From: an uncultured Oxalobacteraceae bacterium
Lineage (GTDB): Bacteria; Pseudomonadota; Gammaproteobacteria; Burkholderiales; Burkholderiaceae_D
Reading direction: 5' to 3'
DNA length: 64,000 bases
Assembly: GCA_965650885.1 (NCBI GenBank)
Contig: CBFGQI010000009.1
Span: forward strand, 185-64,184
How positions within the stretch are numbered: the stretch's first letter is position 1; every line of letters begins with the position of its first letter. Positions 8,872 through 64,000 of the stretch are shown one piece after another. The translations under genes and the position numbers were made by a program. Below the pieces are notes generated by a model. The model was not told the origin of the DNA and did not search any database. It saw only the letters and a program-made list of their open reading frames with translations.

Positions 8872-9363
8872 TCAGACGATGCGGTTGGCCGCCAAGTCCC
8901 AGCCGCCCGAGGTGTTGCCGCCCACGCCGCCGGAAATGCGTTGTTGCGTGTACTTCCAGCGCACTTTGGAGAACTTCATGCCCACTTCCTCGGTCAGGAT
9001 GTCGCCCTCGCTTACCGACGGCGACACCGCGCCGATCAGCACGTTATCCAGTTCGATTTCGAAGTATTTGACCCGCTCGCCCTGCGCATCGGCACGCATG
9101 AATTCCAGCTTGGCCTTGGGGATGGTGCGCCCGGCCGCACAGGTTTGCAGCAGGATCGGCGAAGCCAGGTCGGCCAGCTTGGTGATCACGACATCGCGGT
9201 GCTCGCAACGCTCGGCCGTATGGCCGCCGCCGGTGGAGGACGTGGCCGAACGCGGCTGCTCAACCGCCCAGCTGACCGATTTGCACTCGATCCAGTCCTT
9301 GTGGCGGTCATCGGCCGATTCGCCCTTGATGCCGTCGATATGCAGGTAGACGTCAATTGCCAT
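8872..9363 (-). CDS. hcp: T6SS inner tube protein Hcp (TssD)
   Basis: MAIDVYLHIDGIKGESADDRHKDWIECKSVSWAVEQP is a classic Hcp N-terminus. 163 aa. Confidence 0.95.
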   Translation of the reverse strand: MAIDVYLHIDGIKGESADDRHKDWIECKSVSWAVEQPRSATSSTGGGHTAERCEHRDVVITKLADLASPILLQTCAAGRTIPKAKLEFMRADAQGERVKYFEIELDNVLIGAVSPSVSEGDILTEEVGMKFSKVRWKYTQQRISGGVGGNTSGGWDLAANRIV

Positions 9364-9377
9364 CGCAATACTCCTTT

Positions 9378-15883: not shown

Positions 15884-18800
15884 GGCGCGCTTCCTTTGCC
15901 GGCGACCGACTCGGGCAGGCGCATGCCGCGGAAGCCGCCGGCCTCCTGCCCGCCACCGGCCGCGCTGGTGATGCGCAGGTCCACCGTGACGGCAATGGCG
16001 CCATTATTCCAGCGCAGTTCATGCACGCCGCCCTCCTTGCGCGTGCGCGCGGCCGAGTCGATCATCCGGCGCATGCCGGCGGCGCCGCTTTCGCTGAACA
16101 GTTCCACCACCTTGCCGTCGGGCGTGACGCCGCTGATCCGTACCGCGCCGGTGCCTTGCGGTCCCGGATAGACCATATTCGTCCATTGCGGCACGCCGTT
16201 ACGAAAGCGCAGCAGCTGGCCATCGATCTCCAGCGAATATTCGGCAAGTCCGGCGGCGCCGTGCGGCAACAGCTGGAACACCGTCTGCGGCGATGCCGCC
16301 ACGCCTCCGGCTGACAGGGGCGCCATCCATGCCGGGAAGCGCTGCAAGGTCTGCGGCGCAATGCTGATCCCCATGTCGGCCCAGGTGCGCGGCGCCAGCA
16401 CGTCGCCGCGCCGCACCACCAGCGCGCCAAGCGAGCCGGCGACGAACTTGGCGATGGCCCCATCCGGCCCGAACACCTGGCCGATCTCGGCCTGGCTGGC
16501 CTCCGCGCTCCCGCCTGGCGCGAAGGGAAACTTGGCTGCCAGCGTGCGCATGAAGGGCTGGTAGACTTGCGCCTGCCATGTCTTGTTGATTTCCGCTTCC
16601 GTGGGGCCCACCAGGCCCGCAAACGCCTGCATCAGCGGCCTGACCAGCAAAGGACGGATGGCCAGCTTCTGCGCCTCGGTCATGCCCGCCATCATCTGCT
16701 CGTCCACGTGGCGCACCGCATCGGCCAGCTCGGAGCCGTTGCCTTCCAGCGTCTGCTGCATCAATTGCCGGGCACCGGGACCCGGGTCGCCCTGGTTACG
16801 TATGCCGTTCAGCCGTGCCCGCAAGCGCGACAGGTGCTCGAGATATGTGCGCATCAGGGAGGCATCCTTGTCGCGCGTCGCCAGCAGGCCGGCCAGCGGC
16901 GCAAACTCGCGGCCAAGGGAGCCAGCCTGCGGCAGCGCCGCCGCCACCGCAGCGGCCGCGGGCGCCCGCTCGAACAGGCGCGATTTGATCCATTGCGCCA
17001 GCCCCGGATCGGCCTGGCGCATGGTGCCGTCCTGCAGGCCCAGGTGGTCCCAGCCCGTTTGCGCGACCACCGTGCTCCACACTTTCAGCAGCGGCGAAAT
17101 CGTGGGGTCGCCCAGGCGGTTCATGGCTTCCACCGTACGCGGGAAGTCCGGCATGCCGGCAATTGCCACGCCCTGCAGGAAGGCTTGCCATTCCCTGGCA
17201 TATTCGGCCTTGTAGCTTTCGGTGAGTGCCTTCTGCACCTGTTCCGGACTGCCTTCCAGCGTCAAGTCGTTGCGCTCCGCTGTTTTCAGCACCCAGTCGC
17301 TCGATTGCAGGGTACTGTTTGCCGCCTCGCTGATCGCCGCGCGCACATAGCCTTCCCAGGCTTCGCGGGTGAACGCCCCGGAAACCGCATGGCTGCCCAG
17401 CACCAGCGCGCGGTCTTGCTCGCCAACGATGCGCGACACCGTCATGGCGGGATAGCGCGTGCTGGCGCGGGCCTTGATCCCGGCGTAGACGCGTTCGCGC
17501 GCCGTCATGCCGCGCACCAGCTGCCGCAAGTGTTCGCGCGCCGCGTCGACCAGTGCCAGCCTGGGCTCGATGCGCGGCCAGGCCGGGTCGTTGACCTGGG
17601 TCAGGTAAAAGGCCAACAAGGATTCGGCGCTGCGCAACAGCTGCTCACGCGGCATCGCCCCGCGGTTGGTTTCCAGCCAGGTGCGCCAATGGCGCGTCAA
17701 CTGGTCGCCGAGGTGGCTGGTTTCGGCATGGGATTTATCGGCCAGCATCAGGTAGGCTTTCAAGGCATTGTATGCATCTTCCACCTTGCCAGGTTCCCGT
17801 CCGGACAATTGCGCTTCCAGGCTGCCGGCGACCGGTTTCAGCAGGATCTCCGCCATCCCTTTGAAATATTCGCTGCGCAGCTTTCGCTCCAGTGTATGGC
17901 CCTGGTACAGGCCCAGTCCCAACAGCCATGGGGTTTCGCGGTCCAGCTTATCGAGCTGCTCGATCCGATCCTGCAACAGTTGCAGCGCTTCCAGGCGCGA
18001 TTGCAGGTCCGGCCGCTGCGCTTGCAGCTTGACGACCTTGTCCAGGTCCGCCGCCGCATGCGCGACCAACTGCGCATTGCCGGAGTACGCCCAGGTCCAG
18101 GCGCCCAGCAGCGCGCCCAGCAGGAGCGTCGCGACTGCCAAGCCGCCATTGCGCAACAGCCGCTGCCTGCGGCTGGCGTATTGCGAGACCAGGTCCTTGT
18201 CGGCAAAGATCACGTCGCGGAACAGGCGTGACAGGAAATAGCCGGCCGCCGCGGCGGGGCGTGCGGCACCATCGGCCGGCCGGGCCAGGCCGAAGCGCTG
18301 GGCGACGCGCTGGGATTGCGTGCACAAGGGATGCCCCTCCTGCAACGCGCTGGTGAAGTAGTAGCCCCGGAACACCGGCCGGAACTGGAAAGGGTTGTCT
18401 TCGAACAGCGTCGCGAGGAAGGCCTTCAGCGGGGCACGCAGGGCGGCAAATTCCAGGGGAAAGGTATGCACGCCGGCAGGCACCAGTTCGCGGCGGCGCT
18501 GCGTCATGGTGGCGACGGCCATATCGCGCAGGCCGTCGCACAATTCATCGAAACTCTGTTCGAAGAACGCCAGCATGTCGCGGCAGCCCGCCTTCTGGCG
18601 GAACGGCATCGTTGCGCCCCACGGGCGCTCGCGCTCCGGCGTATCGGCATCGATGAAGAATTCGGCAAATCCCGCCACCAGGTCGGCTTTGGTGAACATC
18701 ACGTACACGGGCGCGAAGACTTCCAGCTTTTCGATCAAGTCCTGCACGCGCTGGCGCAGGCTGCGCGCCAGCGCCAGCACGGCCTCGGGATCTTCGCCGC

Positions 18801-19473
18801 GCAGCTCGGCGATGCTGACGGCGATGATGATGCCGTTGACCGGTGCCCGCGGCCTGTGCTTCTTCAGCAAGCCAAGGAAGCCGTGCCACTCTTCCCTGTC
18901 GGCGGCTTGCACCGCATAACGGCCAGCCGTATCGAGCAGGATGCCTTGCGCCGTGAAGAACCAGTCGCAATGGCGCGTACCGCCGACACCCTGGATCGCC
19001 CTCGGATCCGAAAAGGGGAATTGCAGGCCGGATTGCGTAATGGCGCTGCTCTTGCCCGCCGCCGGGTTGCCGATCACCATATACCAAGGGAGTTCGTACA
19101 GCGCGCGGGCACCGGTGGCGCGGCCAAGGCGCGAATTCCTGATGGTGCCGACGGCTTCCGCCATCGCATTGCGCACCGCTTCGAGGTCGGCCTCGGCACG
19201 CCTTTCGGCAGGCGCCACAGGTTCGGCTTCGCGCCGCCGCGCCAGGTAGCGGCGCGCGCCCCAAACCGCCAGGGCCAGCAGGGCGAGCGCCGCGACGGCC
19301 GCCACCGCCCATACCAGCGCAAGTTGCAGGAGTTCGGCGCCGAGGAAGAACAGGCCCGCCACCAGGGCGAGAGCCAGGACGTTCAAAGTGCGCCTGTCTG
19401 TCAGCAGGTACCAGGTTCGTTGCAGCATGATGGGCTGAGAAAAGGTGGGCAGGTTGGCCGATGTTGCCACCAA
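15880..19473 (-). CDS. tssM: T6SS membrane complex protein TssM (IcmF)
   Basis: N-terminal TM segments, Walker A (GNPAAGKSS) and an IcmF-type periplasmic region, ~1190 aa. Start is uncertain: TTG at 19473 or ATG at 19428. Confidence 0.95.
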   Translation of the reverse strand: MVATSANLPTFSQPIMLQRTWYLLTDRRTLNVLALALVAGLFFLGAELLQLALVWAVAAVAALALLALAVWGARRYLARRREAEPVAPAERRAEADLEAVRNAMAEAVGTIRNSRLGRATGARALYELPWYMVIGNPAAGKSSAITQSGLQFPFSDPRAIQGVGGTRHCDWFFTAQGILLDTAGRYAVQAADREEWHGFLGLLKKHRPRAPVNGIIIAVSIAELRGEDPEAVLALARSLRQRVQDLIEKLEVFAPVYVMFTKADLVAGFAEFFIDADTPERERPWGATMPFRQKAGCRDMLAFFEQSFDELCDGLRDMAVATMTQRRRELVPAGVHTFPLEFAALRAPLKAFLATLFEDNPFQFRPVFRGYYFTSALQEGHPLCTQSQRVAQRFGLARPADGAARPAAAAGYFLSRLFRDVIFADKDLVSQYASRRQRLLRNGGLAVATLLLGALLGAWTWAYSGNAQLVAHAAADLDKVVKLQAQRPDLQSRLEALQLLQDRIEQLDKLDRETPWLLGLGLYQGHTLERKLRSEYFKGMAEILLKPVAGSLEAQLSGREPGKVEDAYNALKAYLMLADKSHAETSHLGDQLTRHWRTWLETNRGAMPREQLLRSAESLLAFYLTQVNDPAWPRIEPRLALVDAAREHLRQLVRGMTARERVYAGIKARASTRYPAMTVSRIVGEQDRALVLGSHAVSGAFTREAWEGYVRAAISEAANSTLQSSDWVLKTAERNDLTLEGSPEQVQKALTESYKAEYAREWQAFLQGVAIAGMPDFPRTVEAMNRLGDPTISPLLKVWSTVVAQTGWDHLGLQDGTMRQADPGLAQWIKSRLFERAPAAAAVAAALPQAGSLGREFAPLAGLLATRDKDASLMRTYLEHLSRLRARLNGIRNQGDPGPGARQLMQQTLEGNGSELADAVRHVDEQMMAGMTEAQKLAIRPLLVRPLMQAFAGLVGPTEAEINKTWQAQVYQPFMRTLAAKFPFAPGGSAEASQAEIGQVFGPDGAIAKFVAGSLGALVVRRGDVLAPRTWADMGISIAPQTLQRFPAWMAPLSAGGVAASPQTVFQLLPHGAAGLAEYSLEIDGQLLRFRNGVPQWTNMVYPGPQGTGAVRISGVTPDGKVVELFSESGAAGMRRMIDSAARTRKEGGVHELRWNNGAIAVTVDLRITSAAGGGQEAGGFRGMRLPESVAGKGSAP

Positions 19474-19498
19474 GCCGGACCACGCCTCTTGAGCCGCC

Positions 19499-20224
19499 TC
19501 AAGCCCTCGTCTCGCGTGAGCGCAATTCGGTATGGCCGAAGTCCATCATGGTCCAGCGGCCGCCCCACACCATGCCGACCGATTCGGCCACCTGCCCATA
19601 CAACTGATAGCCGCGCATGGCCCAGGGATCGCGTTCGCTGATCACCAGCTTGCCTGCGCGGACGAAGGCGCAATCCGCAGCCAGTCCGTATTGATGGAAG
19701 CTCTGGAAGGCGCGCGCATTGCTGACATGGTTGCCGGCCGCCGCCAGCCGTTCCTGCCGCTCCGGACTGCGGTAACCCTCCAGCAGCGCCATCTCGTAAC
19801 CGTGGCGTTCCCGCATCACGTTGAATACCACCAGCAGCCGCTGCGCGAAGTCCTGGTCCAGGCGCTGCCAATCGCGGTCGGCCTGCGACAGCATGGGCCG
19901 CAACAACTCCACGTCGGCGCTGGCGAAGGCCAGCGGCGGCGGGGGCGGCGGCGGCACCAGCTGCTCGCCGTGCAGCAAAGCGGTAATGAGCGGGTCGGCA
20001 CTGCGCTGACCGTCGTCGAACACGGGAAGCATCTGCCGCGGACGCAGCCAACGCACCAGCAAAGGCGGCATGCCTGCCAGGAAGGCGGTGCCGGCGCCGA
20101 TCAGCAGCAGGCGGCGCTGGCGCCGGCAGGGCTTGCGCCTGGGTGGAAAGAGCAACAGCCAGCCAGTGGCGCTGGCAGCGACGAAGATGCCGGCAACGAT
20201 AAATGGCAACATGGTGCGTTCCAT
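19499..20224 (-). CDS. Membrane-anchored peptidase M15 (VanY/L,D-endopeptidase-like; TagX-like)
   Basis: N-terminal TM segment (MLPFIVAGIFVAASATGWLLLF). Zn-binding H-x6-D (SFHQYGLAAD) and a second His (DFGHTE). Directly upstream of tssM in the same orientation. Alternative ATG at 20212. Confidence 0.75.
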   Translation of the reverse strand: MERTMLPFIVAGIFVAASATGWLLLFPPRRKPCRRQRRLLLIGAGTAFLAGMPPLLVRWLRPRQMLPVFDDGQRSADPLITALLHGEQLVPPPPPPPLAFASADVELLRPMLSQADRDWQRLDQDFAQRLLVVFNVMRERHGYEMALLEGYRSPERQERLAAAGNHVSNARAFQSFHQYGLAADCAFVRAGKLVISERDPWAMRGYQLYGQVAESVGMVWGGRWTMMDFGHTELRSRETRA

Positions 20225-20315
20225 CAATACGAAAGCGCATGAGGCGCGCGACACTTGCATCCTATGCCGTCCTGCATCCGGATGGGTCGAGCAAGATCAA
20301 GCTTTGGGAGGACTT

Positions 20316-20864
20316 ATGCGGCCGGACTTGTTTGCGGGGTCCGCCATGCGCGACGATAGCCACCGGCTCCTGGCGCGACTGGCAAATGGTGGCAGCGTGC
20401 CGGCGCCGGCACGGGACTGGGCCTGGAATGCGCCGCACAAGGCGCGCATCGTTGCAGTGGCGGCCTTGCTGGCTGCCGGCATATCAGCCTGGGCCTGGCT
20501 GCGGGACGACGGCGGCGCAACGCCGCCCCAGGCAGCACCGCGTCAGCCGTCCGCCGGCATGGGGAATGCCGGCGCCGCGCCGCCGCAGCCCGCAACCATC
20601 GTCTATGCCGCTTCGCCTCAGGGTCCGCAGGCGGCATCGATTCCCGTTGCCGCCACCGTCGGCGAGGCGGCCTCCCCAGCTGCCGCCGCGCCCGCGCCAA
20701 CGGTGTCAAAACCCGGCCGCCAGCGCCCGGCCAAGCCGGCCGCCGAGCAGCGCGGGCGGCCCAGCGTTCCAGCGCAGGAAAACGACGAGGATGTCACCCT
20801 GCTCACGGCGATGCTCAAGCATGCCACGCCTCAGAAGCCGGCGCCTGAGCCGCCAAAGCAATGA
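20316..20864 (+). CDS. Hypothetical single-pass membrane protein, Pro/Ala-rich
   Basis: GGGAGGA RBS before the ATG at 20316. One TM segment (IVAVAALLAAGISAWAW), then low-complexity P/A sequence. The 3' end overlaps the convergent hydrolase gene by 50 nt. Confidence 0.45.
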   Translation: MRPDLFAGSAMRDDSHRLLARLANGGSVPAPARDWAWNAPHKARIVAVAALLAAGISAWAWLRDDGGATPPQAAPRQPSAGMGNAGAAPPQPATIVYAASPQGPQAASIPVAATVGEAASPAAAAPAPTVSKPGRQRPAKPAAEQRGRPSVPAQENDEDVTLLTAMLKHATPQKPAPEPPKQ

Positions 20865-27311: not shown

Positions 27312-27387
27312 TGGCTCCCCGACCTGGACTCGAACCAGGGACCTGCGGATTAACAGTCCGTCGCTCTACCGACTGAGCTATCAGGGA
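27312..27387 (-). tRNA. tRNA-Asn (anticodon GTT), copy 1
   Basis: Reverse complement TCCCTGATAGCTCAGTCGGTAGAGCGACGGACTGTTAATCCGCAGGTCCCTGGTTCGAGTCCAGGTCGGGGAGCCA folds as a cloverleaf. Anticodon loop is CTGTTAA and CCA is encoded. Confidence 0.95.
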
Positions 27388-41504: not shown

Positions 41505-41580
41505 TGGCTCCCCGACCTGGACTCGAACCAGGGACCTGCGGATTAACAGTCCGTCGCTCTACCGACTGAGCTATCGGGGA
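41505..41580 (-). tRNA. tRNA-Asn (anticodon GTT), copy 2
   Basis: Identical to copy 1 except position 5 (C instead of T), which turns the 5:68 U-G wobble into C-G. Confidence 0.95.
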
Positions 41581-48979: not shown

Positions 48980-49055
48980 TGGCTCCCCGACCTGGACTCG
49001 AACCAGGGACCTGCGGATTAACAGTCCGTCGCTCTACCGACTGAGCTATCAGGGA
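48980..49055 (-). tRNA. tRNA-Asn (anticodon GTT), copy 3
   Basis: Sequence identical to copy 1. Lies 36 nt downstream of the aminotransferase stop. Confidence 0.95.
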
Positions 49056-53344: not shown

Positions 53345-53659
53345 CTAGCTCAGCAAGTCACCAATTGCCGAGATGCCGTCTCCCAGCATGTCGACGATGT
53401 CTGCCCCCGCCCCGATTCCGTCGATGACGTCCATTGGGCTGATCCCGCCGCCATCCGCTGGCTGCGGCGCCTGCCGCGCCAAACGCGCCCGGGCCGCTTC
53501 CAAGCGCGCGTGCCCGGCCTCCCGCTGCGTGATCGCCTCCGGTGCCAACCGCACTTCGGGTGGCAAGTCGGCACCGCAATACAGGCATCGCGCAGCGCTT
53601 CGGTTCAACACGCCACGTGTGCAGACCGCGCATCGGAATTTGGGTTCGATGTCTTTCAT
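53345..53659 (-). CDS. Small zinc-ribbon-like protein with Gly/Asp-rich tail
   Basis: CxxC ... CxxC (FRCAVCTRG...RCLYCGADL). Tail is DVIDGIGAGADIVDMLGDGISAIGDLL. The ATG overlaps the upstream stop as ATGA. Confidence 0.5.
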   Translation of the reverse strand: MKDIEPKFRCAVCTRGVLNRSAARCLYCGADLPPEVRLAPEAITQREAGHARLEAARARLARQAPQPADGGGISPMDVIDGIGAGADIVDMLGDGISAIGDLLS

Positions 53660-53921
53660 CCGGTCGCCTTGCGCATGCCAGCCAGGTCACGGATGACCGG
53701 CCTGCCATATTGCTCCAGCGCGTCAAACATTTCGTTCACCATGGGAGTGATTAACCGCAACGCCTCTTCCTCCGTCAAGCCGCGGTAGTCCACAGGAAGT
53801 CGCGGTTGGACGAGCGCCGCAAGGGGTGCTTGTCGAATTTTTCGTGCCTGAATTCGGGGAAGCGGGCTTTCATCCCCTCGTCCACCAAGGACACAAGTAC
53901 TTTCCTGTAAAGTTTATTCAT
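53656..53921 (-). pseudogene. Frameshifted small gene, paralogous to the C-terminus of the 54540-55278 gene
   Basis: Frame 1 (MNKLYRKVLVSLVDEGMKARFPEF...) stops at 53775. The frame offset by one nucleotide continues VDYRGLTEEEALRLITPMVNEMFDALEQYGRPVIRDLAGM to 53656. The span is 266 nt, not a multiple of 3. Confidence 0.45.
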
Positions 53922-54531
53922 ACCTGTTAGCTGTCATGAAATCCCACACGTGCCCGGTCGCTTCGGTTCCAGGGAATACCGCAACATGATTGCGGAACGC
54001 TTCCATTGTTATCGAGAGGACGCACCCATCCGGATTGGACTTCAGGAATTTCTTCAGTTCCGCGACTGCTCGCCTGTCCATGCCTTTTGTCGGATTGACG
54101 TAATACAGCAGGGTCGGGTTCCGCGCAAGCCAGGAAAACGGGACGGTCTCCCAATTGGAAAAGAAGCACAGCAAGTCGCCATAAGCTGGCATGACTTGCG
54201 GCAGGCCGAGCATGCGCACGATCAGACGGCCGCGATCCGCAAGGAATTCCAACAAGCGCGGCGCAGGCACAAAATCAAGGTCGTGTGCACCATTGGACTC
54301 AACGAGGAATTGTGCTACGTCATGCGAGAGCGGCCGTGCAATATCCCTCTCCAAACCATACAGCCGCATGCTGCCGGCACTTTGCATCGACGTCGCCAGG
54401 CCAGCCAGGCATGCAACTTGTGCACGCAACAAATCGTGACCTGAAAGTCCGGAGTCCACGATCGTTGCGAACATCGAACCTGTCCGCAGGTAGCCGGCAT
54501 GCAGGTCGTCAAGGTATGTCGAATTTGCCAT
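53914..54531 (-). CDS. Hypothetical protein in the Rhs-downstream cassette array
   Basis: Intact 205-aa ORF from the ATG (a GTG alternative lies at 54543). Its stop overlaps the next ATG within TATGAATAA. No recognised domain. Confidence 0.5.
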   Translation of the reverse strand: MANSTYLDDLHAGYLRTGSMFATIVDSGLSGHDLLRAQVACLAGLATSMQSAGSMRLYGLERDIARPLSHDVAQFLVESNGAHDLDFVPAPRLLEFLADRGRLIVRMLGLPQVMPAYGDLLCFFSNWETVPFSWLARNPTLLYYVNPTKGMDRRAVAELKKFLKSNPDGCVLSITMEAFRNHVAVFPGTEATGHVWDFMTANRYE

Positions 54532-54539
54532 TCGTCGTT

Positions 54540-55278
54540 TCACACCTCAGGTGTTGAATGCAAAAACAAGGTTGATCCTCCGCACATGGACTCCGCCAGC
54601 TCACGCATAAAGGGCGCGCCACAGAGCTTGAGGGTATTGAACATATCGTCAACCAGAGGCCGAATGATTTGCTCGGCTTCCGCTTCAGTGAGTCCGCGGT
54701 AGTCATCGAACACATCGATTGGGGTAACCGGTGGTGGAAGCTGGTGGCGTTTGATTTCCCACGACCAGCGATTTCCGCACAATTCTCCCACCGGGATGAA
54801 GGCTTCATCGAGCGCAATGCTCTCACGTGTATATACCGCAAGCGCTGCAAGAAGGAATGCATGGCCGATTCATCATCGGGAAGGTGCACGGGCCGGAAGA
54901 ATGCGCGCGGCAAGTCAGCGATCCCCTGACCGAATACCAGTTGCCCATCACTGCCAAACGTTTCAGTACCCGCCAACATGGGCGGCACCATCTTTGCGGT
55001 ATGCCAGCCTCGCCCAGCGCATGCTTCACACACGCTGCGACCGCATCGTCCGATAATCTGTCCTCCATCACCGCATGCAGGTTCACGGGATGACGATATT
55101 GCATGCCCCAGGCCTGCCCGAGCGGAGCGAGCATCAAGGCAATACGAAAGCCTGCTTCGTCAATGCTGGGGGAGAGCACATGCACACCTCCATCCTTCCT
55201 TAATGAATGCAGTCTGGTCACACCAAGCTGCAGATAGTCACGGAAAAGGATATCTGTGCGAACAACGCTTAACGCCAT
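54540..55278 (-). pseudogene. Degraded cassette gene (at least two frame changes)
   Basis: Protein-like sequence moves between three minus-strand frames. MALSVVRTD...ALGEAG switches near 54990 to KMVPPMLAGTETFGSDGQLVF...HLPDDE. That switches near 54865 to IGHAFLLAALAVYTRES...DYRGLTEAEAEQIIRPLVDDMF. Confidence 0.45.
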
Positions 55279-55332
55279 GAAGTTGCCCCGTCGATGAATT
55301 TGCCGTCCGGCACTCGGCAAAAGGCCACCATA

Positions 55333-55764
55333 CTATTCGGCCTCGCCGTCCTTGACTTCCTCGTACAGGTCTTGTGTTTCTTCTTGCAGCTCTTCCAACG
55401 AATCCGGCTCGTCACCCCCATACGAAATACGTGCGTCGAAGTGCTTGGCCAGCGCCAAGCTGGCGATCATCACGGCCACGCAATCGCGCATGCTTCCGCC
55501 CCAGCTCATCGTAATGCAATAGTCGCGATCTCCTGCCAGGAGCGCAAGCTGTTCGGCATCGTCGATGATCTCGCGCGCGCTCTCGTACTGGAGCTCAAAG
55601 CCGGCGGGCTGTCCAAGAAGAGTACATGGCAGGTAGCCCGAATGTTCCATCGCTTCAAAGGAAGCACTTAGCTGGAAGTCAAAGCCGGTCTGGTCGATTG
55701 CTGCCTGCCAATCAGCCGGAGTAGGTACGCGGCCTTTGGAAATGAATGCGAACTGGTCGTTCAT
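55333..55764 (-). CDS. Hypothetical acidic protein (second immunity-type gene after the Rhs toxin)
   Basis: Intact 143-aa ORF with a highly acidic C-terminus (EELQEETQDLYEEVKDGEAE). Lower GC than the genome background. Confidence 0.5.
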   Translation of the reverse strand: MNDQFAFISKGRVPTPADWQAAIDQTGFDFQLSASFEAMEHSGYLPCTLLGQPAGFELQYESAREIIDDAEQLALLAGDRDYCITMSWGGSMRDCVAVMIASLALAKHFDARISYGGDEPDSLEELQEETQDLYEEVKDGEAE

Positions 55765-55788
55765 ATAGTCTCGCGAAAAGTGCAGCGT

Positions 55789-56304
55789 TTACCAATCTTT
55801 CGGCTCGCGGGCGAACCCGATCTCAATTCCCCGCTTGATTTGCTCGCGCAGTTCGCGATCGGGATAAAACCCTCGGGCACCAAGGTAAGCAAAATAGGCT
55901 TCAGGAGAGTTGATCGACGAGAACCATGGGATCGCGTTCTGATCAATGGCCGAGAGGATCAAATCCAGCGACGCGCAAATTTCTTCGTGTGTTTCAACCT
56001 CGAACACAATTCCCGCCTGCGGACGCTCGGGAAAATCCGCCGACAAGGTGCCTCCGATCAGGCCCAAACGGACGGGAAACTCCTGGAACTGCCCTGTCTC
56101 CTGGTCATCAATCCAAGGACTCAGGATCGTCACGTACACTCGCAAGTGCGCCCCGCCCGCGATTATTTCCGACCAGAGTACATCGTACAGCGGACCACGC
56201 TTTCTCCAGTAATAGAACTTCTTTTCAACAGCGAAGCCCCTGCGCCTCATCTTGTTGTTAAAGCCTCCCTCTGCGACCTTATCAAGTTGCGAAAATGTCG
56301 TCAC
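55789..56304 (-). CDS. Probable cognate immunity protein (DUF4304-like)
   Basis: GTG start 16 nt after the Rhs stop with a GAGGAAAG RBS. N-terminal pattern (..RRRGFAVEKKFYYWRKRG...LRVYVT) resembles the DUF4304 family often found next to polymorphic toxins; family recalled from memory. Confidence 0.55.
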   Translation of the reverse strand: MTTFSQLDKVAEGGFNNKMRRRGFAVEKKFYYWRKRGPLYDVLWSEIIAGGAHLRVYVTILSPWIDDQETGQFQEFPVRLGLIGGTLSADFPERPQAGIVFEVETHEEICASLDLILSAIDQNAIPWFSSINSPEAYFAYLGARGFYPDRELREQIKRGIEIGFAREPKDW

Positions 56305-56320
56305 GAACTTTCCTCTTCAG

Positions 56321-59300
56321 TCATGGAATAGCGACACCGACCGTATAAACGCGTGTCTTGAACCTGCGCTGATATTCCGCGCGCTTCGCGCCCGGCATAC
56401 CCAAATTGCCGATGCCGGATTGTACTCCAGCCCCTGTCTTCAAGTCGAAGGCTACGGCTGGTCGCTTCTTATAGTAAACCAGGACATCGATACGATATGA
56501 ACCCTTTTGTCCATAATATGCACTGCGCCCCCCTGACATACGCGACACTTCTGCAAATACAGAGATGTTGCGAGTGATACTTCCATTTGCCAGCCATTTA
56601 TTCAGCCGCTCGATTTCACGGCTTAAGAACGCGTGTGCCAAGGTTCCTTTCTTCCGCTTTGAGACTTTCTGCCCGGACGTACTATTAATTGCGTCGTCAA
56701 CTGCCCCGATACACGCTTCAAGGACAAGCTCGCCGATCAGGCCGAAATCACCCTTCTTCGGATCGCCGATCAGGAATTTCCGGACCATGTGCTGCATGAT
56801 GGCGGTGGCCGAACTGGACATCGTGCCTTGTATATTGCTGACCGCACTCAGCTCCATGCTGTTCGTTTCGCCACTCGGATCAGTGTTCGCGATCGGATCC
56901 AAAGCAGCGTACACGTAGCGATGCAGCGACAATGGCAAGTCAAGGTCGCCTTCATATGGGTCGACCGATATGAAACGACCTTCCTCGGCGCTGTACCAGC
57001 GTGCACGGTTGTATTGCAGCCCGATATCGGCGTCGAAATACTCATTAGCAAAGCCGTAGCCGCTACTAGACTGCGATGCGCCAGTGCGTTCGCCAAAAGC
57101 GCCAAACTCATGGTTGGATTTAAGCGCACCATTTGAGCCAACAACTTGCCTTACGCTGCCGATGGCATCGGTAAGGAAGTATGTTTGTTGCGCACCTTGG
57201 TCGGCAATGAGCTCATTACTCCAAATATGGCGCAGCACTTCACTTCCGCCTCGGTCCTCTTCCAGTACTTGCGCATAGTCGAACGTGCTATCGACCAGGT
57301 AGTCGGTAACCGCTTCCTCCCCACCGTCAATCGGGACGATTTTTCTAACGCGGTTGCCATCCGCGTCATAGCGGAATAGCGCAACCGTCTTCGCGGCGCC
57401 GGCACTGGCACCCTGCCGGACTTCGATGAGGCGCCCACCCGAATCCCAGTTGAAAAATTGACCGTTCGTGCCGGTGATCTTGCTCAGCAGGTTACCGCGT
57501 GGGTCCCAAACATAAGAAGTTTGCACGGTACTGCCGCTTAGTGTCGAACGCTGCGAAGACAACAGACGGTCATTGACATCGTACATATAGCTAGTGACTT
57601 CGGAGCCGGCTTCGGTCGTTTCTACTTTTTTCAGCCGGTTGCCAACCGTGTCATATGCATAATCGCTAGTGCGAACCGTTGTGCCGTTTCGGGCTGTGAC
57701 GCGCTCTTGGACCAACCGACCAGCGCCATCGTAGGCATATTGCAAGGTGCGCGCAGGAGAGCTCAAGTCATCACCGATCAGGGTGCTGTTTTGGTCATAT
57801 TCCTGGACAGCAGTCCGTTTGCCATTTGCCGACAGCGTATAGCGCACTGCAAACTGTAAGGACCCATCGGCCGCAACATGCGTTATCTGGATAATGCGTC
57901 CGGCTTGATTGTAGGCATAACGTGTAGTCAGCCCGTTCGGCCGTACAAAGGAAGCGACACGCCCTGCGGCGTCGTAGACGTATGAATGCTTGCCGCCAGA
58001 TGGATCGGTGACGGCCAATACGCGACCCGCCGCGTCATTGGTGTATCTCACCGTTGCAGTTTTGGTAGTACGTTCGATCACGTTGCCGTTTGCGTCATAC
58101 GCATAGGCGATATAACTACCGTCGGGATTTTCCTGCCGTACCAACTGATCCTGCTGGTCGTAATGGAAGCTTGTGGTCCCTGAACGTAAACCAGAGTTCC
58201 CGACGTTGGCAACATTGATTGTCAACGGCATGCCGGCAGCCGAATATGTGCGTGCAATCCGCGCGCCGTCGGGTCGGACGGTCAAGATTAGTCGATTGTC
58301 GGCGTCATACGCATGCTGGGTCACTCCTTGGTCAGCATCAATGACTTGACCGAGATTGCCGTGCACGTCGTACGAAAACACACGCCTTTGCCCACCTGGC
58401 GCGACATGAGCGAGAAGGCGACCTTTGGCGTCGTACTCCCAGGTGGTAGTCCGGCCTTCACTGTCGACTTGGGCGACTTTATTCCCCACGCTATCGTATT
58501 CATACGTCGTGGCGAGAGTAGTTTGCCCCACGGTCTGGCGCACTTTTTTGAGGCGCCCCAGTGCATCGTTTTCGTACTCGATACGGCTGCCATCAGCGGC
58601 GACTTCAGCCAACTTCGCCCCGTTCGCTGCCCACGACACTTCCTTCGATTCCCCGGAAGAGGTTGTAACTTTGACTGGCCTGTTAAGGGCATCGTAGGTG
58701 TAGTTAGTTACTTCACCTGCGCCATTGGTAACGGAGATACGGTTACCGGCTGCATCGTAGGCATAAAGGCTGGTCCGTCCCTCTTCATCGGTTTCTTCAA
58801 CGACTTGGCCAGCAGCGTCAAACTTGCTGGTGCTCCGCCGTCCCGCGCCATCGATGTTGGCAACTATCCTACCGGCCGCATCATATTCAGCACCCTCACT
58901 CAAACCGGTTGGATAGGTGGTGCGAACCAGGCGATTCAGCGCGTCATATTCATAGCGGGTGACGCGACCCTGACGGTCAGTCATACTGACGCGGTTTCCT
59001 TCCGCATCGAAGGATTGCGCCTCCCATGTACCGTCGGGGTACGTCTTTTTCACCGGCTTTCCGCGCGCGTCGTACTCAAAGGTAGTACGCCTGCCGGCCG
59101 CATCAATCGATGCCGTCAGCAAACCGCCAGCGTTGTACTCCGCTTTCGTCACGACGGACATAGCGTCTGTGGCTTCAACTACCCGGCCCTCTGCATCGCG
59201 TTTCAGGGCATACCCCTCGATCACAGGGTCGGTCTTTCCGGCCACTTTACGCTGCCATGAACGGCTCAACTCTTTTCCGTTGGCATCAAACGTTGATGTC

Positions 59301-62300
59301 CGCACGTTGCCGTCGGGGCCGGTAACCTTGACAGGATTGCCTTTGGCATCGTAAGCAAAAGTTGTGGTGGCGTTGACCAAACTCATGCTTGCGATGTTGC
59401 CTTGGCTGCCGAAACCAACGCTGCTTGTCCTTCCCAGGGGTTCAAAAATGGCGTAGCCATTCTCTCCGTAGTTGAAGCTCGTCTTGTTGCCGCGCGCATC
59501 TTCCGTCGTCATCAGCAGAGTACCTGACCCGTCATACTCCCACTTGTTGGTATGCCCAAGGGGATTCACTTCGGTCAGTTGCTTACCGCCGGAACTGAAC
59601 GTCCGTGTCGTGACGTTGCCTAAGGGATCGGCAGCACTCGTCTGGTTACCGTTGGCATCGTAAGTAAAGACCGATTTATTCTGCAACGCGTCAATGACTT
59701 CAGTAATATTTCCCGCCGCGTCATACTGATACGATGTCTGGTTGCCGCGCCTGTCCTTGACCACTTCGCGGTTGTTGGCGATATCGTGGTTCAATTCAAT
59801 CGCCTTGCCGGTGCTATCGAACACCGCTATGACCCGGCCTTCTTCGTCATAGACGTAGCGGGACATGAGGGCCCCCATCGGGTCCGTGTATTCAGTCATG
59901 CCATGGGTGCGGTTATAACTAAAGCGCGATACGGCGCCCACGCGATCCGATACCGCAGTCAAGTCTCCACTGGCATCATAGGTATAGCGGATGGCTTTAC
60001 CGGCAGGATCGGTAATCGACGCGATTCTCCCCTTGGCGTCGCGTAAAAACGCTACAGACTGCCCACTACTGTGCAAGATTCCGTTCTGGCCATAGGTCAG
60101 GACATTACCAACTGGATCCTTGATCTGGACAATACCAACACCCTCGCGGATGTAGTAGACATAGTTATCTTCCGTGGTGAGCTTGAACTCTTTCGGATTC
60201 CAGGTCTCCAGATTATCCATGTCGTACAGCTGTCCGCCTTGCGCTATGACGGTTGGCACATTGATGATTTCCAACCGGCTGTTAGTGCCAGGTAAGGGAT
60301 GTAGCTCAATATTGACTGGTGGCACCTGGACAAAAGCGCATTCATCCCGATTCTTTGCGACAAACCTCTCCACACGCCCATCTGGAAGCGTCAGGTTAAT
60401 CTTTCGCTTTCCTGATGGCACGATGCAAAGCGTGAGTACCTGCGAGTGTGCAACGACATTCCATTGCAGTCCCAAAACCATGTTCTTCTGCAATTTGACA
60501 CTTTGGTAGTCAACACTCCATCCATAGCCAAAGTCCAGTGCCTCATTCTTGCGTCGTGAATCGTAAGTGCGCGTCACGCGGATCGGGATGCCTGATGCTT
60601 CAACATTCAAGTCCTCGAAGGTCAATGCAAACTGACCAATCTTCAGGTCACGGTAAACATCTAACGTCACCATTTGCGTCTGCTGCCGGCCATTGGCGTC
60701 GACTACGTTCAGTACCATCTCGTAAATGCCATTCGACAGCTGAGTAGGATCCAGCTTACCCAGCACGCCATTGGCCACAGCGCTGGTGCCGCGCGCAATT
60801 TCGCTCCATGCATTGCCGCCAGCGGGGCGCAGCAGCAGTTGGTAGTAGGCCAGGTTGGTCGCCGTGGCAGTGCCGGTCACGTTGACCGGCGCGGTCACTT
60901 CGGCGTCATCCACCGGGGCGGTGATTTGCGCGACCGGCGTGGTGCTGTCGGCCGGATCGCGCACGCTGTAGGTGCCGACGCGTGTGGTCGTGCTGATGCT
61001 GTCGGTAATCTTGGCCGTGATCTGGTGCGCGCCGATGGCGGTGCCGGTCACGGTGGCGCGGCCTTCCACCGTCAGTGCCACTTCCTGGCCGTCGATGGTC
61101 AGGCTGCGTGTGACGTTGCCGCTGCCACCGGTGCTCAGCACGTCGATGGTGACGGTCTCGCCCAGGTTGATCACCTGCGGCGTGATCTTCAGGTTGGCGT
61201 CGAGCGGCACTTGCTGGCCGACGGTGAGCTGGTAGCGCTGTTCGGCGTAGGCGCGGCCATTGTCGGCGCGCACGGTGACGTTCCAGGTGCCGGCTACCGG
61301 CTTGGTCCAGCTGATCACGCCGTCGGCGGAAATCGCCATGCCGGTCGGTGCTTCGCGCAGCGCATAGGCCAGCGCGGCGCCTTTCGGGTCGGTGGCTTGC
61401 ACCGCGTAGTTATACAGCTGGTTGGCGCCGCCGTTGATGACCGGAGCGCTGGTGATGACCGGGGCGCCGGCCACGGCGCCGCTATCGAAGCCGCCGCTGG
61501 TATCCAGTCCGGCGGCGATGGTGCCGGTCAGGATGTCGCAAGCACCGCTGCCCTGCCCTGCGGCCAGGCGCGCCAGGAACAGGCCGCTGGCCACGTCGGC
61601 CTGTCCTGCGTAAAAGCTCCAGCGCGTGGTGCTGCCGGTTTCGCCAAGCAGGCTGGCGAGCGTGTCGTTGACCGGCTGCGCTGCCTGCGCGGCGGGTGCG
61701 GCGGCAGTTGCCGCTTGCGCAGGTTCGGCCAGGGCCAGCCAGGTGGTGCCGTTCGGCAGATACAGGGCGGATGTCGCGTAGCCGGCTTCGCCATGCAGGC
61801 GGTAGCTGCCGGCGCCGTTGGCGTCTTCCATCACCAACCCGTGGCCATTCCAGTTGCCGATATTGACTGGGGCTTGTGCCACCAGTGCGCGGCTGCCGGC
61901 CGCGACGGTGTTCTGGATGTCGGCAGCTGCTGCGGCGGCGATGTCCACTTGCGGCAGTACGCTGGCCGCATTGGCGGACGTGACCGCGAAGACTTTACTG
62001 CCGGCGCTGGCGGCGGCATTCAGCGCCTTGACCGGCGAGGCTGCCTGGCCCGGCGTTTGCGCGCTGGTGAACAGCTTGGCCAGCACCAGGTGGCCGTAAG
62101 CGGCATTGCGTTCATTGGCTTGCCTGGTATAGGCGGCAGGCGCCAGGCCGCCGCTGTTCTGCGCCACGGCGCTGTCCAGTCGGTCGATGTCCAGCACCAC
62201 GCCGGGGAAGCGCACCTTGTTGACGATGCCCAGCACCATTTCGGGCTGGGCTTGCGCCACGGCACGGCCGTAGGATGGCAGGCGCTGTTCCACTACACGC

Positions 62301-63979
62301 GCTGCGCGCTGGAACACGCCGGCGTTGGCGTCCACCGTGGCAAAGTAGCCCAGGGCTGCGTGGTACAGCAGGTCGCCGCTGACGTCGTCGCGCGTCAGGC
62401 CGGCGGCCTGGCCGCTGGCCAGCTTGGCCTGGGTGGCGTTCAGCCGTGCCTTGAGCGCGGCCAACTGGCCGGCTGCCACGCCTTGCGCGTCGATGGCGAC
62501 GGCATGGTAGTCGCCGGCGTGCGCGCCGAATGCGGACTCATTCCAGGTGCCGCTGGACGGATCGAAACTGGCGATGCCGCCCACCACGTCGCTGCCCAGC
62601 ACGAAGCTGCCGCCGCTGGCGACCACTTCGCCGTCGGCGCGGATTTCGGCTTTCACGCGTACCAGGTAGCCCGGCACTTCCATCGGCAGCTCGTCCGGCT
62701 GGATCGGGCTGCCGTCGGCATGCGCCTTGGGCATGTAGGAGGCCAGCACGTCGGCGTCGGCCTGGCTGGCCGGGGCGAAGCTCAGGGTCAGGCGCTTGTT
62801 GGCCACCGCCGCCAGGCTGCCGCTGTAGCTGACGGCCGGCGTGTTGGCTGCTTGCGCAGCGGCGCTGGCAAACAGCTGGAGGCGGAATTGCCAGCGCAGG
62901 TTGTCCGGCAGCGTGTTGACGATGGCGCCTTGCGCCACCTTGGCGTATGGCAGGCTGCCCAGCAGGATGCCGTAATTGCGCGCGGCGATATGGCGGTTGC
63001 CCAGCACGTCGCCCACCGTGAGGTCGGCGCCCTGCTGGCCCAGGTATCCGTTCAGGCGCGTCTTGAAGTCGGTGTAGCCGGCTTGCAGGTTTGGCAGGTT
63101 CAGGTTTTGCGCATAGTCGGGCGTGCAGACCGCTCCCTGGCGCACCTGGCTGAGCAAGCCCGCTTCATTCAGGCTGACGGCATTGGCCAGGTCCAGGCCG
63201 GCCTTGCTGTCCATCTGCTTGAAGCTGGCATCCAGCGGCACCCAGGCGCCCGGCGTCTTGTTCACGCCGCCGCGGCTTGGCGAATAGTCGACATAGGCTT
63301 CAACCCACACATGTTCCAGCTGTAGCGCGCCTACCTGGCCCGCCTGCGCGACGGCGCGGTGCGGGATGCCGGATTGCGCCAGCAAGGCTTGCGCCGCGGC
63401 GGCGCTGTCCACGTCCAGCCAGTTCTGCACTTTCGCCAGCGGCACTTCGATGGTGCCGTACACATAGCGCGAAGGAATGCCGGCGGCGCGGTTCAGCGCG
63501 ATCAGCAGGCCGGCGGTGTCGGTGGCATTGCCCCGCCGTGCCAGCAGCGTGGCGTCGGCATCCTGCATGGCGCCGAAGCCGGGCGCGTAGGCGATATTGT
63601 TGCGCACCCAGTTGTAGATGGCGACCGGGCTGTTGCCCAGCTGGGCGGCCAGTGCGCGCACGGCGGGTGTCAGCACCACTTCGCCCTGCTCCGCCAGGTC
63701 GCCCGGCTGCACCGTATCGGGCAGGATAGCATCCGGCAGCGTAATGCCGCTCAGCGAGCCGGCCGCCGCCAGCAGCACCGAACGCGGGAAACGCCTTTCA
63801 TGCTGGCGCGCGGTCATGGCTACCGGCGGTGCCGCCTTCTTTTGCCTGCCCCACGCATGGCCTTTCCCTTGCGCGCCCTGGCCCGACAGGCTTGAATGCT
63901 GCTTCATCAGCTTGGCCAGCTGGTTCAGCGCCGGCTGCAGGCTGCCCTTGCCGACCGCCGCTGCGTCCAGTGCGGCCAT
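56321..63979 (-). CDS. Giant Rhs/YD-repeat polymorphic toxin with N-terminal transglutaminase-like and Ig-like domains; 5' end unresolved
   Basis: Dozens of YD repeats (YxYDxxGNxx), an Rhs core end (RYVYAALDPIANTDPSGE), a transglutaminase-like segment (LLIALNRAAGIPSRYVYG...HVWVEAYV...PLDASF) and a putative Ig domain (VITSAPVINGGANQLYNYAVQATDP). The frame is still open at nt 64000. Candidate starts are 63979, 63907 and 63817. Confidence 0.9.
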   Translation of the reverse strand: MAALDAAAVGKGSLQPALNQLAKLMKQHSSLSGQGAQGKGHAWGRQKKAAPPVAMTARQHERRFPRSVLLAAAGSLSGITLPDAILPDTVQPGDLAEQGEVVLTPAVRALAAQLGNSPVAIYNWVRNNIAYAPGFGAMQDADATLLARRGNATDTAGLLIALNRAAGIPSRYVYGTIEVPLAKVQNWLDVDSAAAAQALLAQSGIPHRAVAQAGQVGALQLEHVWVEAYVDYSPSRGGVNKTPGAWVPLDASFKQMDSKAGLDLANAVSLNEAGLLSQVRQGAVCTPDYAQNLNLPNLQAGYTDFKTRLNGYLGQQGADLTVGDVLGNRHIAARNYGILLGSLPYAKVAQGAIVNTLPDNLRWQFRLQLFASAAAQAANTPAVSYSGSLAAVANKRLTLSFAPASQADADVLASYMPKAHADGSPIQPDELPMEVPGYLVRVKAEIRADGEVVASGGSFVLGSDVVGGIASFDPSSGTWNESAFGAHAGDYHAVAIDAQGVAAGQLAALKARLNATQAKLASGQAAGLTRDDVSGDLLYHAALGYFATVDANAGVFQRAARVVEQRLPSYGRAVAQAQPEMVLGIVNKVRFPGVVLDIDRLDSAVAQNSGGLAPAAYTRQANERNAAYGHLVLAKLFTSAQTPGQAASPVKALNAAASAGSKVFAVTSANAASVLPQVDIAAAAAADIQNTVAAGSRALVAQAPVNIGNWNGHGLVMEDANGAGSYRLHGEAGYATSALYLPNGTTWLALAEPAQAATAAAPAAQAAQPVNDTLASLLGETGSTTRWSFYAGQADVASGLFLARLAAGQGSGACDILTGTIAAGLDTSGGFDSGAVAGAPVITSAPVINGGANQLYNYAVQATDPKGAALAYALREAPTGMAISADGVISWTKPVAGTWNVTVRADNGRAYAEQRYQLTVGQQVPLDANLKITPQVINLGETVTIDVLSTGGSGNVTRSLTIDGQEVALTVEGRATVTGTAIGAHQITAKITDSISTTTRVGTYSVRDPADSTTPVAQITAPVDDAEVTAPVNVTGTATATNLAYYQLLLRPAGGNAWSEIARGTSAVANGVLGKLDPTQLSNGIYEMVLNVVDANGRQQTQMVTLDVYRDLKIGQFALTFEDLNVEASGIPIRVTRTYDSRRKNEALDFGYGWSVDYQSVKLQKNMVLGLQWNVVAHSQVLTLCIVPSGKRKINLTLPDGRVERFVAKNRDECAFVQVPPVNIELHPLPGTNSRLEIINVPTVIAQGGQLYDMDNLETWNPKEFKLTTEDNYVYYIREGVGIVQIKDPVGNVLTYGQNGILHSSGQSVAFLRDAKGRIASITDPAGKAIRYTYDASGDLTAVSDRVGAVSRFSYNRTHGMTEYTDPMGALMSRYVYDEEGRVIAVFDSTGKAIELNHDIANNREVVKDRRGNQTSYQYDAAGNITEVIDALQNKSVFTYDANGNQTSAADPLGNVTTRTFSSGGKQLTEVNPLGHTNKWEYDGSGTLLMTTEDARGNKTSFNYGENGYAIFEPLGRTSSVGFGSQGNIASMSLVNATTTFAYDAKGNPVKVTGPDGNVRTSTFDANGKELSRSWQRKVAGKTDPVIEGYALKRDAEGRVVEATDAMSVVTKAEYNAGGLLTASIDAAGRRTTFEYDARGKPVKKTYPDGTWEAQSFDAEGNRVSMTDRQGRVTRYEYDALNRLVRTTYPTGLSEGAEYDAAGRIVANIDGAGRRSTSKFDAAGQVVEETDEEGRTSLYAYDAAGNRISVTNGAGEVTNYTYDALNRPVKVTTSSGESKEVSWAANGAKLAEVAADGSRIEYENDALGRLKKVRQTVGQTTLATTYEYDSVGNKVAQVDSEGRTTTWEYDAKGRLLAHVAPGGQRRVFSYDVHGNLGQVIDADQGVTQHAYDADNRLILTVRPDGARIARTYSAAGMPLTINVANVGNSGLRSGTTSFHYDQQDQLVRQENPDGSYIAYAYDANGNVIERTTKTATVRYTNDAAGRVLAVTDPSGGKHSYVYDAAGRVASFVRPNGLTTRYAYNQAGRIIQITHVAADGSLQFAVRYTLSANGKRTAVQEYDQNSTLIGDDLSSPARTLQYAYDGAGRLVQERVTARNGTTVRTSDYAYDTVGNRLKKVETTEAGSEVTSYMYDVNDRLLSSQRSTLSGSTVQTSYVWDPRGNLLSKITGTNGQFFNWDSGGRLIEVRQGASAGAAKTVALFRYDADGNRVRKIVPIDGGEEAVTDYLVDSTFDYAQVLEEDRGGSEVLRHIWSNELIADQGAQQTYFLTDAIGSVRQVVGSNGALKSNHEFGAFGERTGASQSSSGYGFANEYFDADIGLQYNRARWYSAEEGRFISVDPYEGDLDLPLSLHRYVYAALDPIANTDPSGETNSMELSAVSNIQGTMSSSATAIMQHMVRKFLIGDPKKGDFGLIGELVLEACIGAVDDAINSTSGQKVSKRKKGTLAHAFLSREIERLNKWLANGSITRNISVFAEVSRMSGGRSAYYGQKGSYRIDVLVYYKKRPAVAFDLKTGAGVQSGIGNLGMPGAKRAEYQRRFKTRVYTVGVAIP
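56324..56866 (-). other. C-terminal variable toxin domain of the Rhs protein (181 aa after the DPIANTDPSGE core-end motif), PD-(D/E)xK nuclease-like
   Basis: The domain begins TNSMELSAV right after the Rhs core terminus. Candidate catalytic pattern is E (FAEVS) ... D (YRIDVLV) ... D-x-K (AFDLKTG). Confidence 0.5.
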
Positions 63980-64000
63980 GGCCGCCTTCAGTTCCGCATT

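Follow-up and report, generated by a model that had tools for sequence, protein, structure and literature searches.

How much of a polymorphic Rhs toxin gene is exchanged between strains, the C-terminal toxin tip or the whole YD-repeat shell in front of it? Rhs shells are usually regarded as a conserved, interchangeable container, with diversity mostly in the small C-terminal tip. In this study, an rhs gene was analyzed in a 64,000-nucleotide (nt) stretch of DNA (the window) from an uncultured Oxalobacteraceae bacterium (contig CBFGQI010000009.1). An earlier reading of the letters of this DNA (the sequence-only reading) had proposed that a native N-terminal module was joined to a foreign block of about 7 kb made of shell, tip and immunity genes. 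Synonymous divergence (dS), breakpoints and synteny all agreed with this proposal. The foreign block stood, and a one-off fusion did not: the same junction and the same drop in guanine plus cytosine (GC) content were found in every relative, which points to recurrent replacement. The results suggested that the N-terminal module was probably inherited vertically and that the whole shell-toxin-immunity block was replaced repeatedly by blocks from old, mutually distant lineages.

Coordinates are those of the window, and codon or residue numbers count from the first in-window ATG at 63,979. The Rhs frame was open through base 64,000 and homologues began about 190 codons farther upstream; comparison with them showed that this ATG was not the true start. 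The parts of the gene and its putative immunity gene were as follows (GC3, GC content at third codon positions; aa, amino acids).

56,321-63,979, minus strand: Rhs open reading frame (ORF), 2,552 codons from the first in-window ATG
60,851-64,000, minus strand: conserved N-terminal module of native composition (GC 0.69, GC3 0.85), its 5′ end cut by the window
60,620-60,850, minus strand: junction zone, with the composition and divergence shift inside a conserved hinge (..GIYEMVLNVVDANGRQQTQMVTLDVYRDLKIGQF..RTYDS..FGYGWSVDYQ..)
56,840-60,724, minus strand: YD-repeat (Rhs) shell, with Pfam and NCBIfam matches (GC3 0.60)
56,321-56,839, minus strand: C-terminal toxin tip, about 171 aa plus stop, of an Rhs C-terminal (Rhs-CT) family without a characterised member
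55,789-56,304, minus strand: putative cognate immunity gene, 171 aa, starting 17 nt past the rhs stop (GC3 0.64)

Relatives were collected by a genome scan with one genome per species, in which the N-terminal 1,085 residues of the Rhs protein were the query. The gene was found in six Duganella/Pseudoduganella genomes (L001-L006), at 73-88% identity, and in Undibacterium hunanense (L008). A metagenome contig (L011) was also compared.

Composition of the rhs gene and its flanks

The GC content of 60-nt lines was 0.688 ± 0.049 on average in 60,841-64,000 and 0.549 ± 0.056 in 53,661-60,660. The 120-nt profile fell from 0.68-0.70 to 0.51 between 60,880 and 60,640, and the 300-nt profile was concordant. 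In frame, GC3 fell from 0.850 to 0.601, with a maximum-likelihood changepoint at codon 1053 (window 60,823) and a 2-lnL interval of 60,850-60,760. The significance of the step was evaluated by its log-likelihood ratio (LLR) against 200 shuffles. The LLR was 97.9; the shuffles averaged 2.6 and reached 8.9 at most. There was no second GC3 changepoint inside the shell and tip, including the core/tip boundary (best LLR 1.8).

The computed GC and GC3 profiles confirmed that the switch was sharp and not gradual. The five hand counts of 60-nt lines in the sequence-only reading were exact (0.683, 0.767, 0.433, 0.433 and 0.467), but the three low lines belonged to the low tail of the region, and the drop was overstated. 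The position given there, near codon ~1085, is an in-window number in a truncated ORF, and the changepoint was codon 1053.

The low composition continued past the rhs gene. All four small ORFs measured 3′ of rhs had a GC3 of 0.60-0.66, and the flank genes (a 104-aa ORF, peroxiredoxin, uvrB, aminotransferase and others) had a GC3 of 0.76-0.83. Low GC3 reached about 53.9 kb, and native GC3 was back at 53,659. The low-GC3 block thus covered about 53.7-60.8 kb, consistent with the earlier claim that low GC runs through the immunity-like genes to about 53.7 kb.

A step of this kind could also arise with no foreign DNA, from an Ala/Gly-rich N-terminal region next to a Tyr/Asp/Asn/Thr-rich shell, as a property intrinsic to the architecture. 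The GC drop at the junction was 14.3 points (0.688 to 0.545). The shell amino-acid composition under N-terminal codon usage reproduced 5.8 of these points, and codon usage accounted for 8.5 (about 60%, against about 40% for amino acids). The drop in total GC at the junction in all relatives, and the Undibacterium N-terminal part that is GC-richer than its host, also fit this explanation. However, GC3 itself stepped from 0.85 to 0.60, the unrelated small downstream ORFs were also low in GC3, and synonymous divergence saturated at the same point. The blocks in the six related genomes had GC3 values of 0.55-0.87, and the L002 shell had a GC3 of about 0.85, so low GC3 is not intrinsic to shells. 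A pure amino-acid-composition artefact was rejected as the full explanation on GC3 and dS and is very unlikely in that role; amino acids stay a partial contributor.

Divergence on the two sides of the junction

Five of the six related genomes (L001-L004 and L006) had the rhs gene at the same location, near a peroxiredoxin gene and the first conserved downstream gene.

53,345-53,659, minus strand: 104-aa gene with a Cys-rich, zinc-ribbon-like N-terminus (GC3 0.76)

The 104-aa protein was 53-67% identical in five relatives. Nucleotide synteny with L001-L004 and L006 was back at 53,623-53,663 and ran onward through the 104-aa ORF and the peroxiredoxin, which is a 1-Cys peroxiredoxin. The synteny included uvrB in the four loci that reach that far (L001, L002, L004 and L006). 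The variable stretch past the rhs stop was 0.5-4.5 kb long across the syntenic genomes. In the window, the whole variable block was about 7.1 kb (about 53,660-60,800), and the 104-aa gene marked its 3′ edge.

Upstream of the junction, divergence was that of a housekeeping gene. Over residues 60-1085, five of the Duganella/Pseudoduganella genomes were 84-91% identical in protein, and L005, the sixth, was 72-74% identical to them. The N-terminal dS against the five closest genomes was 0.42-0.53 and matched the uvrB dS of 0.40-0.47, calculated for the window against L001, L002 and L004; against L005 it was 0.66. The closest N-terminal relative was L011, with about 87-88% nucleotide identity. Past the same junction its identity was about 60%; its shell was a different one (58% over the alignment), and so was its toxin, a DNase_NucA_NucB.

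Breakpoints in the mismatch rate between the window and seven relatives (L001-L006 and L011) were all located at 60,560-60,752. The junction, which the sequence-only reading had proposed to look for in related strains, was therefore in the same place in all seven. The dS in codons 1041-1120 was intermediate, at about 1.0-1.6. The hinge (about residues 1075-1190) straddles the 5′ joint and was kept at the protein level even in Undibacterium, and residues 1086-1400 were about 70% identical to the relatives. The shell body was 44-49% identical to the shells of the relatives, with a saturated proportion of synonymous differences (pS) of 0.72-0.81. The blastn similarity to the relatives was absent past about 59,700, in agreement with this saturation.

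The 1,295-aa shell was searched against 5.8 billion proteins. The best match was the L011 protein, with 53% identity (58% over the aligned part). L011 was rejected as the shell donor since it is a member of the same locus family. The two halves had separate closest relatives, as had been suspected: the N-terminal part was 87-88% identical to Duganella/Pseudoduganella, and the shell was at most 53-58% identical to anything. Farther downstream, the tip in the window showed no relationship to the tip of any relative of the gene (13-21% identity), tip identity across genomes was 13-30% except in the L003/L004 pair, and the cassette gene content differed completely between strains.

These differences could also have developed in place, by fast shell and tip evolution under diversifying selection or hypermutation. 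The shell identity of 44-49% was near the repeat-motif floor across phyla (34-40%), so saturation alone cannot date the split. The L003/L004 pair provided a control. These two genomes were collinear through rhs and the immunity gene, which they have in common, at 86% nucleotide identity; their shells were 89% and their tips 92% identical, with an N-terminal dS of 0.51 and a shell dS of 0.79. The N-terminal dS of L003 and L006 was similar, at 0.46, whereas their shells were saturated at 48% identity. The L003/L004 block is co-inherited at flank-level divergence, which indicates that shells evolve at ordinary rates when co-inherited. The tips also belonged to different families, such as DNase_NucA_NucB in L011, and the downstream genes were non-homologous. 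On the control pair, in-place fast evolution was rejected as the full explanation, and it is highly improbable that it formed the block unaided.

The Undibacterium hunanense gene (L008 10,220-16,339) was mosaic in the opposite sense. Its 5′ part had a GC3 of 0.70-0.83 and its 3′ part 0.34-0.51, in a host whose genes had a GC3 of 0.41-0.66. The high-GC3 5′ part included the first approximately 350 shell residues, and the GC3 step was located at about window-residue 1460, away from the hinge.

Ancient balanced polymorphism without import was considered as a further explanation. The divergent alleles would always have been in the high-GC lineage, and low GC3 would have arisen in situ as non-recombining alleles missed GC-biased gene conversion or codon-usage selection and drifted to AT. 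All blocks in the six genomes were at or below the host GC3 (0.55-0.87), a lower-GC donor was not found, and the junction position was the same in all strains, as this explanation expects. On the other side, the L002 block was host-like, the family is mosaic between genera of different GC (Undibacterium hunanense), and the cassette content was wholly different between strains. Balanced polymorphism still needs block replacement by recombination in the flanks, and only the origin of the low GC3 differs. It is quite unlikely.

Several points weigh against replacement by blocks from distant lineages. The compared set had nine sequences only. The alignment of a repetitive shell at 45% identity adds noise to dS, and just about 60% of the raw GC drop was codon usage. 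GC fell at the same junction in six of six related genomes, and a drop common to all relatives could come from an old shared junction and an in-situ process. Neither a shell donor nor a second copy of the shell class was found among the 5.8 billion proteins (best 53-58%); import is thus inferred from the discontinuity and was not observed. Of the earlier claim of an imported block, the compositional distinctness held, but the search gave no donor, and amino acids explained part of the raw GC drop.

Shell, toxin tip and cassette genes

Further features were located in the shell and in the variable stretch behind the immunity gene.

60,503-60,646, minus strand: DUF6531 plug region, residues 1112-1159 (27 bits)
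56,870-57,100, minus strand: Rhs-associated core domain, residues 2294-2370 (TIGR03696, 57.7 bits against a cut-off of 32.5)
55,333-55,764, minus strand: additional cassette ORF, 143 aa, which may be an orphan immunity gene (GC3 0.66)
54,509-55,033, minus strand: cassette ORF, 174 aa, no family match
53,914-54,543, minus strand: cassette ORF, 209 aa, no family match (GC3 0.62)

The shell matched RHS_repeat (PF05593) in 18 stretches (E 9e-113) and TIGR01643 in 11 stretches (E 4e-91). Its score for NF041261, the NCBIfam enterobacterial RHS element core equivalog, was 226.7 bits against a cut-off of 2000 bits. The core end ALDPIANTDPSGE aligned with ..DPSG[LMNR].. in all relatives, and the tip followed directly after it. 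No PAAR domain was matched in the Rhs protein by Pfam or NCBIfam. No type VI secretion system (T6SS) neighbourhood was found in the relatives, in which the upstream neighbour was a 3016-aa NHL/CarboxypepD_reg protein and not vgrG.

The tip, the immunity candidate and the other small ORFs had no match in Pfam, NCBIfam or PDB sequence searches. The tip was 55% identical to P0121, which follows an orphan Rhs core end in frame, and the gene next downstream of P0121 was 52% identical to the 171-aa ORF. The recurrence of the tip and the 171-aa ORF next to each other behind an orphan core end suggested that they form a putative toxin-immunity pair. An exhaustive phmmer search gave 36 tip relatives, some of them located C-terminally in other RHS proteins. 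The family keeps the motifs GTxAH, AExF, GxDV and FDLKTG, a PD-(D/E)xK-like pattern, and the tip is a predicted nuclease. The single-sequence AlphaFold model of the tip had a predicted local distance difference test (pLDDT) score of 50.

The closest relative of the tip-immunity pair was a cassette of orphan core end, tip and immunity gene on two metagenome contigs (L012 and L013). In L012 the cassette was about 2-7 kb from SymE-toxin/helix-turn-helix (HTH) genes, a primase and a phage-type integrase, which suggests that it may be carried on a mobile element.

The L011 cassette array (9,043-10,525) contained a 143-aa gene with 82% identity to the 143-aa ORF of the window, although the main toxin of L011 is different (DNase_NucA_NucB). 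An insertion sequence (IS) with an rve integrase was present inside this array. Fragments of the 174-aa ORF recurred twice in L011 and once in L002 (17,929-18,096), at 36-43% identity. A 165-aa ORF at 54,823-55,320 overlapped the 174-aa ORF; it had a GC3 of 0.60 and no homologue support. Cassettes common to strains with different main toxins fit an array of orphan immunity genes. L003 had 2.16 kb of inserted DNA in its cassette array (18,551-20,710) relative to the otherwise collinear L004, which indicates that the array changes by insertions and deletions as well as by whole-block replacement. No orphan rhs core or tip fragments were found in 53,601-56,320 by tblastn with eight Rhs proteins (E <= 0.01).

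A 99-nt non-coding stretch of the window (53,790-53,888), just before the 104-aa ORF, was 76% identical to L002 17,637-17,735, where the copy sits directly after the rhs stop codon. It may be a conserved 3′ border element, for example a terminator or a recombination substrate.

N-terminal module, proposed exchange mechanism and known systems

The N-termini of the homologues began with MFRNSTMQRIIAS...AFAQ, followed by a predicted helical region. In L001 and L003-L007 the pattern was MFR[NH]..[LM]QR[IL]..AS..LLA.F....[AP]..A[FYL]AQ, which is signal-peptide-like and looks like a putative Sec signal peptide. One domain was identified in the module behind it.

63,227-63,631, minus strand: transglutaminase-like domain, residues 117-251 (Pfam PF01841, E 9e-17)

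The domain had a weak PDB match to 3isr. Its catalytic Cys was replaced by Ala in seven of the seven sequences that cover it, with GNATD, GSATD or GNAFD at the former catalytic motif across homologues. The domain is predicted to be inactive, with a disrupted Cys-His-Asp triad. No Ig-type Pfam family was detected in residues ~850-1085 at E <= 0.01; the He_PIG-type look of this region is by eye only.

The following mechanism is proposed for the exchange. The replaced unit would run from the shell plug through the YD shell and the tip to the cognate immunity gene, and would take in a short cassette array as well. Vertical inheritance would apply to the 5′ approximately 1,050 in-window codons and to the housekeeping genes downstream, which would supply the homology for crossover, with the 5′ joint marked by the hinge where the N-terminal module gives way to the shell. 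The block in the window would retain the codon usage of a lower-GC background, which would give the sharp GC3 step. The mosaicism of the Undibacterium hunanense gene across genera of different GC makes a stay in a lower-GC host a plausible source of this codon usage. In the protein, the shell would encapsulate the C-terminal PD-(D/E)xK-like toxin and release it at the conserved ..DPxxxxDPSGE core end, and the 171-aa downstream protein would protect the producer. Competition between strains would maintain the diversity of the block.

Neither direct (att-like) repeats nor tRNA genes were found at the block borders, and the small ORFs tested matched no integrase or transposase family. The lack of all three at the borders makes homologous recombination in the conserved flanks the likeliest mechanism. 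A site-specific mobile element was rejected because no bracketing repeats were found, the small ORFs tested included neither an integrase nor a transposase, and the nearest tRNA gene (48,980) was 4.6 kb from the variable block. This gene is one of three tRNA-Asn(GTT) genes on the minus strand (27,312-27,387, 41,505-41,580 and 48,980-49,055), which are spread over 22 kb.

CdiA, a large delivery protein, combines a conserved N-terminal part with replaceable modules, a C-terminal (CT) toxin/immunity pair and downstream orphan cassettes. It has filamentous haemagglutinin repeats, two-partner secretion and a VENN joint. The Rhs locus resembles CdiA in its conserved front and swappable modules, and differs in fold, secretion and joint. 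In teneurin and Tc-toxin BC, a YD-repeat shell encapsulates a C-terminal toxin. Pfam TEN_YD-shell matches were found on relatives of the rhs gene. Unlike teneurin and Tc-toxin BC, the present protein had no beta-propeller or TcB/SpvB domains according to Pfam.

In enterobacteria, rhs genes have a G+C-rich core and an A+T-rich tip, and each clade has its own N-terminal domain, which varies together with the core (PMC2935791). Exchange occurs by C-terminal displacement, in which displaced tips with partial cores pile up downstream (Hill and co-workers; Jackson et al. 2009, PMC2935791). The earlier statement that classically only the tip and immunity gene are foreign is thus too simple, since the enterobacterial core is itself atypical and G+C-rich (PMC2935791). 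The present locus shares YD repeats, a variable tip, an immunity gene and intragenic mosaicism with these genes, as well as a low-G+C trough past the gene and an exchange proposed at a conserved motif (PMC2935791). The break is at the hyperconserved core end in enterobacterial rhs, whereas in this locus it is at the junction of N-terminal module and shell (PMC2935791). Unlike classical displacement, the N-terminal parts were 84-91% identical but the cores only 44-49%, there was no composition step at the tip, and no orphan cores were found.

Sec-dependent polymorphic toxins in which RHS repeats follow an inactive transglutaminase have been described, and a surface-anchoring role was suggested for the transglutaminase domain (Zhang, Aravind et al. 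2012, PMC3482391). Bacterial Ig-type domains are sometimes located between the transglutaminase and the RHS repeats (PMC3482391). The order at the present locus was consistent with this architecture: a putative signal peptide (in homologues), a Cys-to-Ala transglutaminase, RHS repeats and a variable toxin. The secretion route would then be Sec-dependent. The Ig-type domains expected from this architecture were not detected by Pfam in the present protein. The published description covers domain architecture only, without whole-shell replacement or a compositional junction.

In Pseudomonas aeruginosa, whole T6SS effector islands at rhsP2 are exchanged through flanking conserved genes (PMC11751169). 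The present locus is similar in its fixed position, the exchange of an effector-immunity block and the flanking core genes as a crossover substrate. In the islands, the whole rhs gene moves with hcp, vgrG and the adaptor (PMC11751169), whereas here the crossover zone is inside the toxin gene and the 5′ portion stays. The present locus also has no T6SS context, unlike the rhsP2 islands.

The architecture of inactive transglutaminase and RHS and the GC-mosaic rhs loci are already known; the difference here is that the replaced unit includes the entire shell. A limited literature search gave no account of a whole shell being replaced behind a conserved N-terminal module. The boundary of the polymorphic cassette is shifted upstream by about 1,300 codons, and strains with housekeeping-level N-terminal divergence hold shells as different as those of another genus. 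The locus is a clean case of an intragenic GC3 step that marks a recombination joint. If this is general for Sec-dependent, non-T6SS Rhs toxins, the shell or the pairing of shell and cargo may matter for specificity, and annotation or typing schemes that take the core as the stable part of rhs would mislead. The relatives would also form a natural set of N-terminal/shell chimeras, suitable for studying what the module needs from the shell.

A more speculative extension is possible, though unlikely. The shell would itself determine specificity, for example by recognising a target or receptor or by docking to the 3016-aa protein, and frequency-dependent selection would keep it hyper-diverse. The hinge would be a dedicated recombination joint, a 5′ counterpart of PxxxxDPxGL/VENN, that moves units between Oxalobacteraceae genera of different GC.

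The 3016-aa protein is encoded outside the window, directly upstream of rhs in L004 (356-9,406), and also in L001-L003 and L006, at 85-89% identity. It had CarboxypepD_reg repeats, NHL/beta-propeller repeats and weak teneurin NHL and TTR-like matches. Judged by these domain matches, the 3016-aa protein and the YD shell look like a split teneurin-like or Tc-like two-gene unit.

Opposite the GC-rich N-terminal part, an 883-aa ORF was found on the plus strand at 60,674-63,325, among other long antisense ORFs. Such long antisense ORFs commonly arise as artefacts in high-GC coding sequence and are not genes.

Homologues of the N-terminal module without an Rhs part were found as stand-alone proteins of about 1,030 aa in L009 (9,263-12,391) and L010 (9,560-12,637). 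They were transglutaminase-like and 40-43% identical to the module, and the L010 protein adjoined a NIDO and MG2 (alpha-2-macroglobulin-like) protein. These Rhs-free homologues indicate that the N-terminal module exists as an independent protein family.

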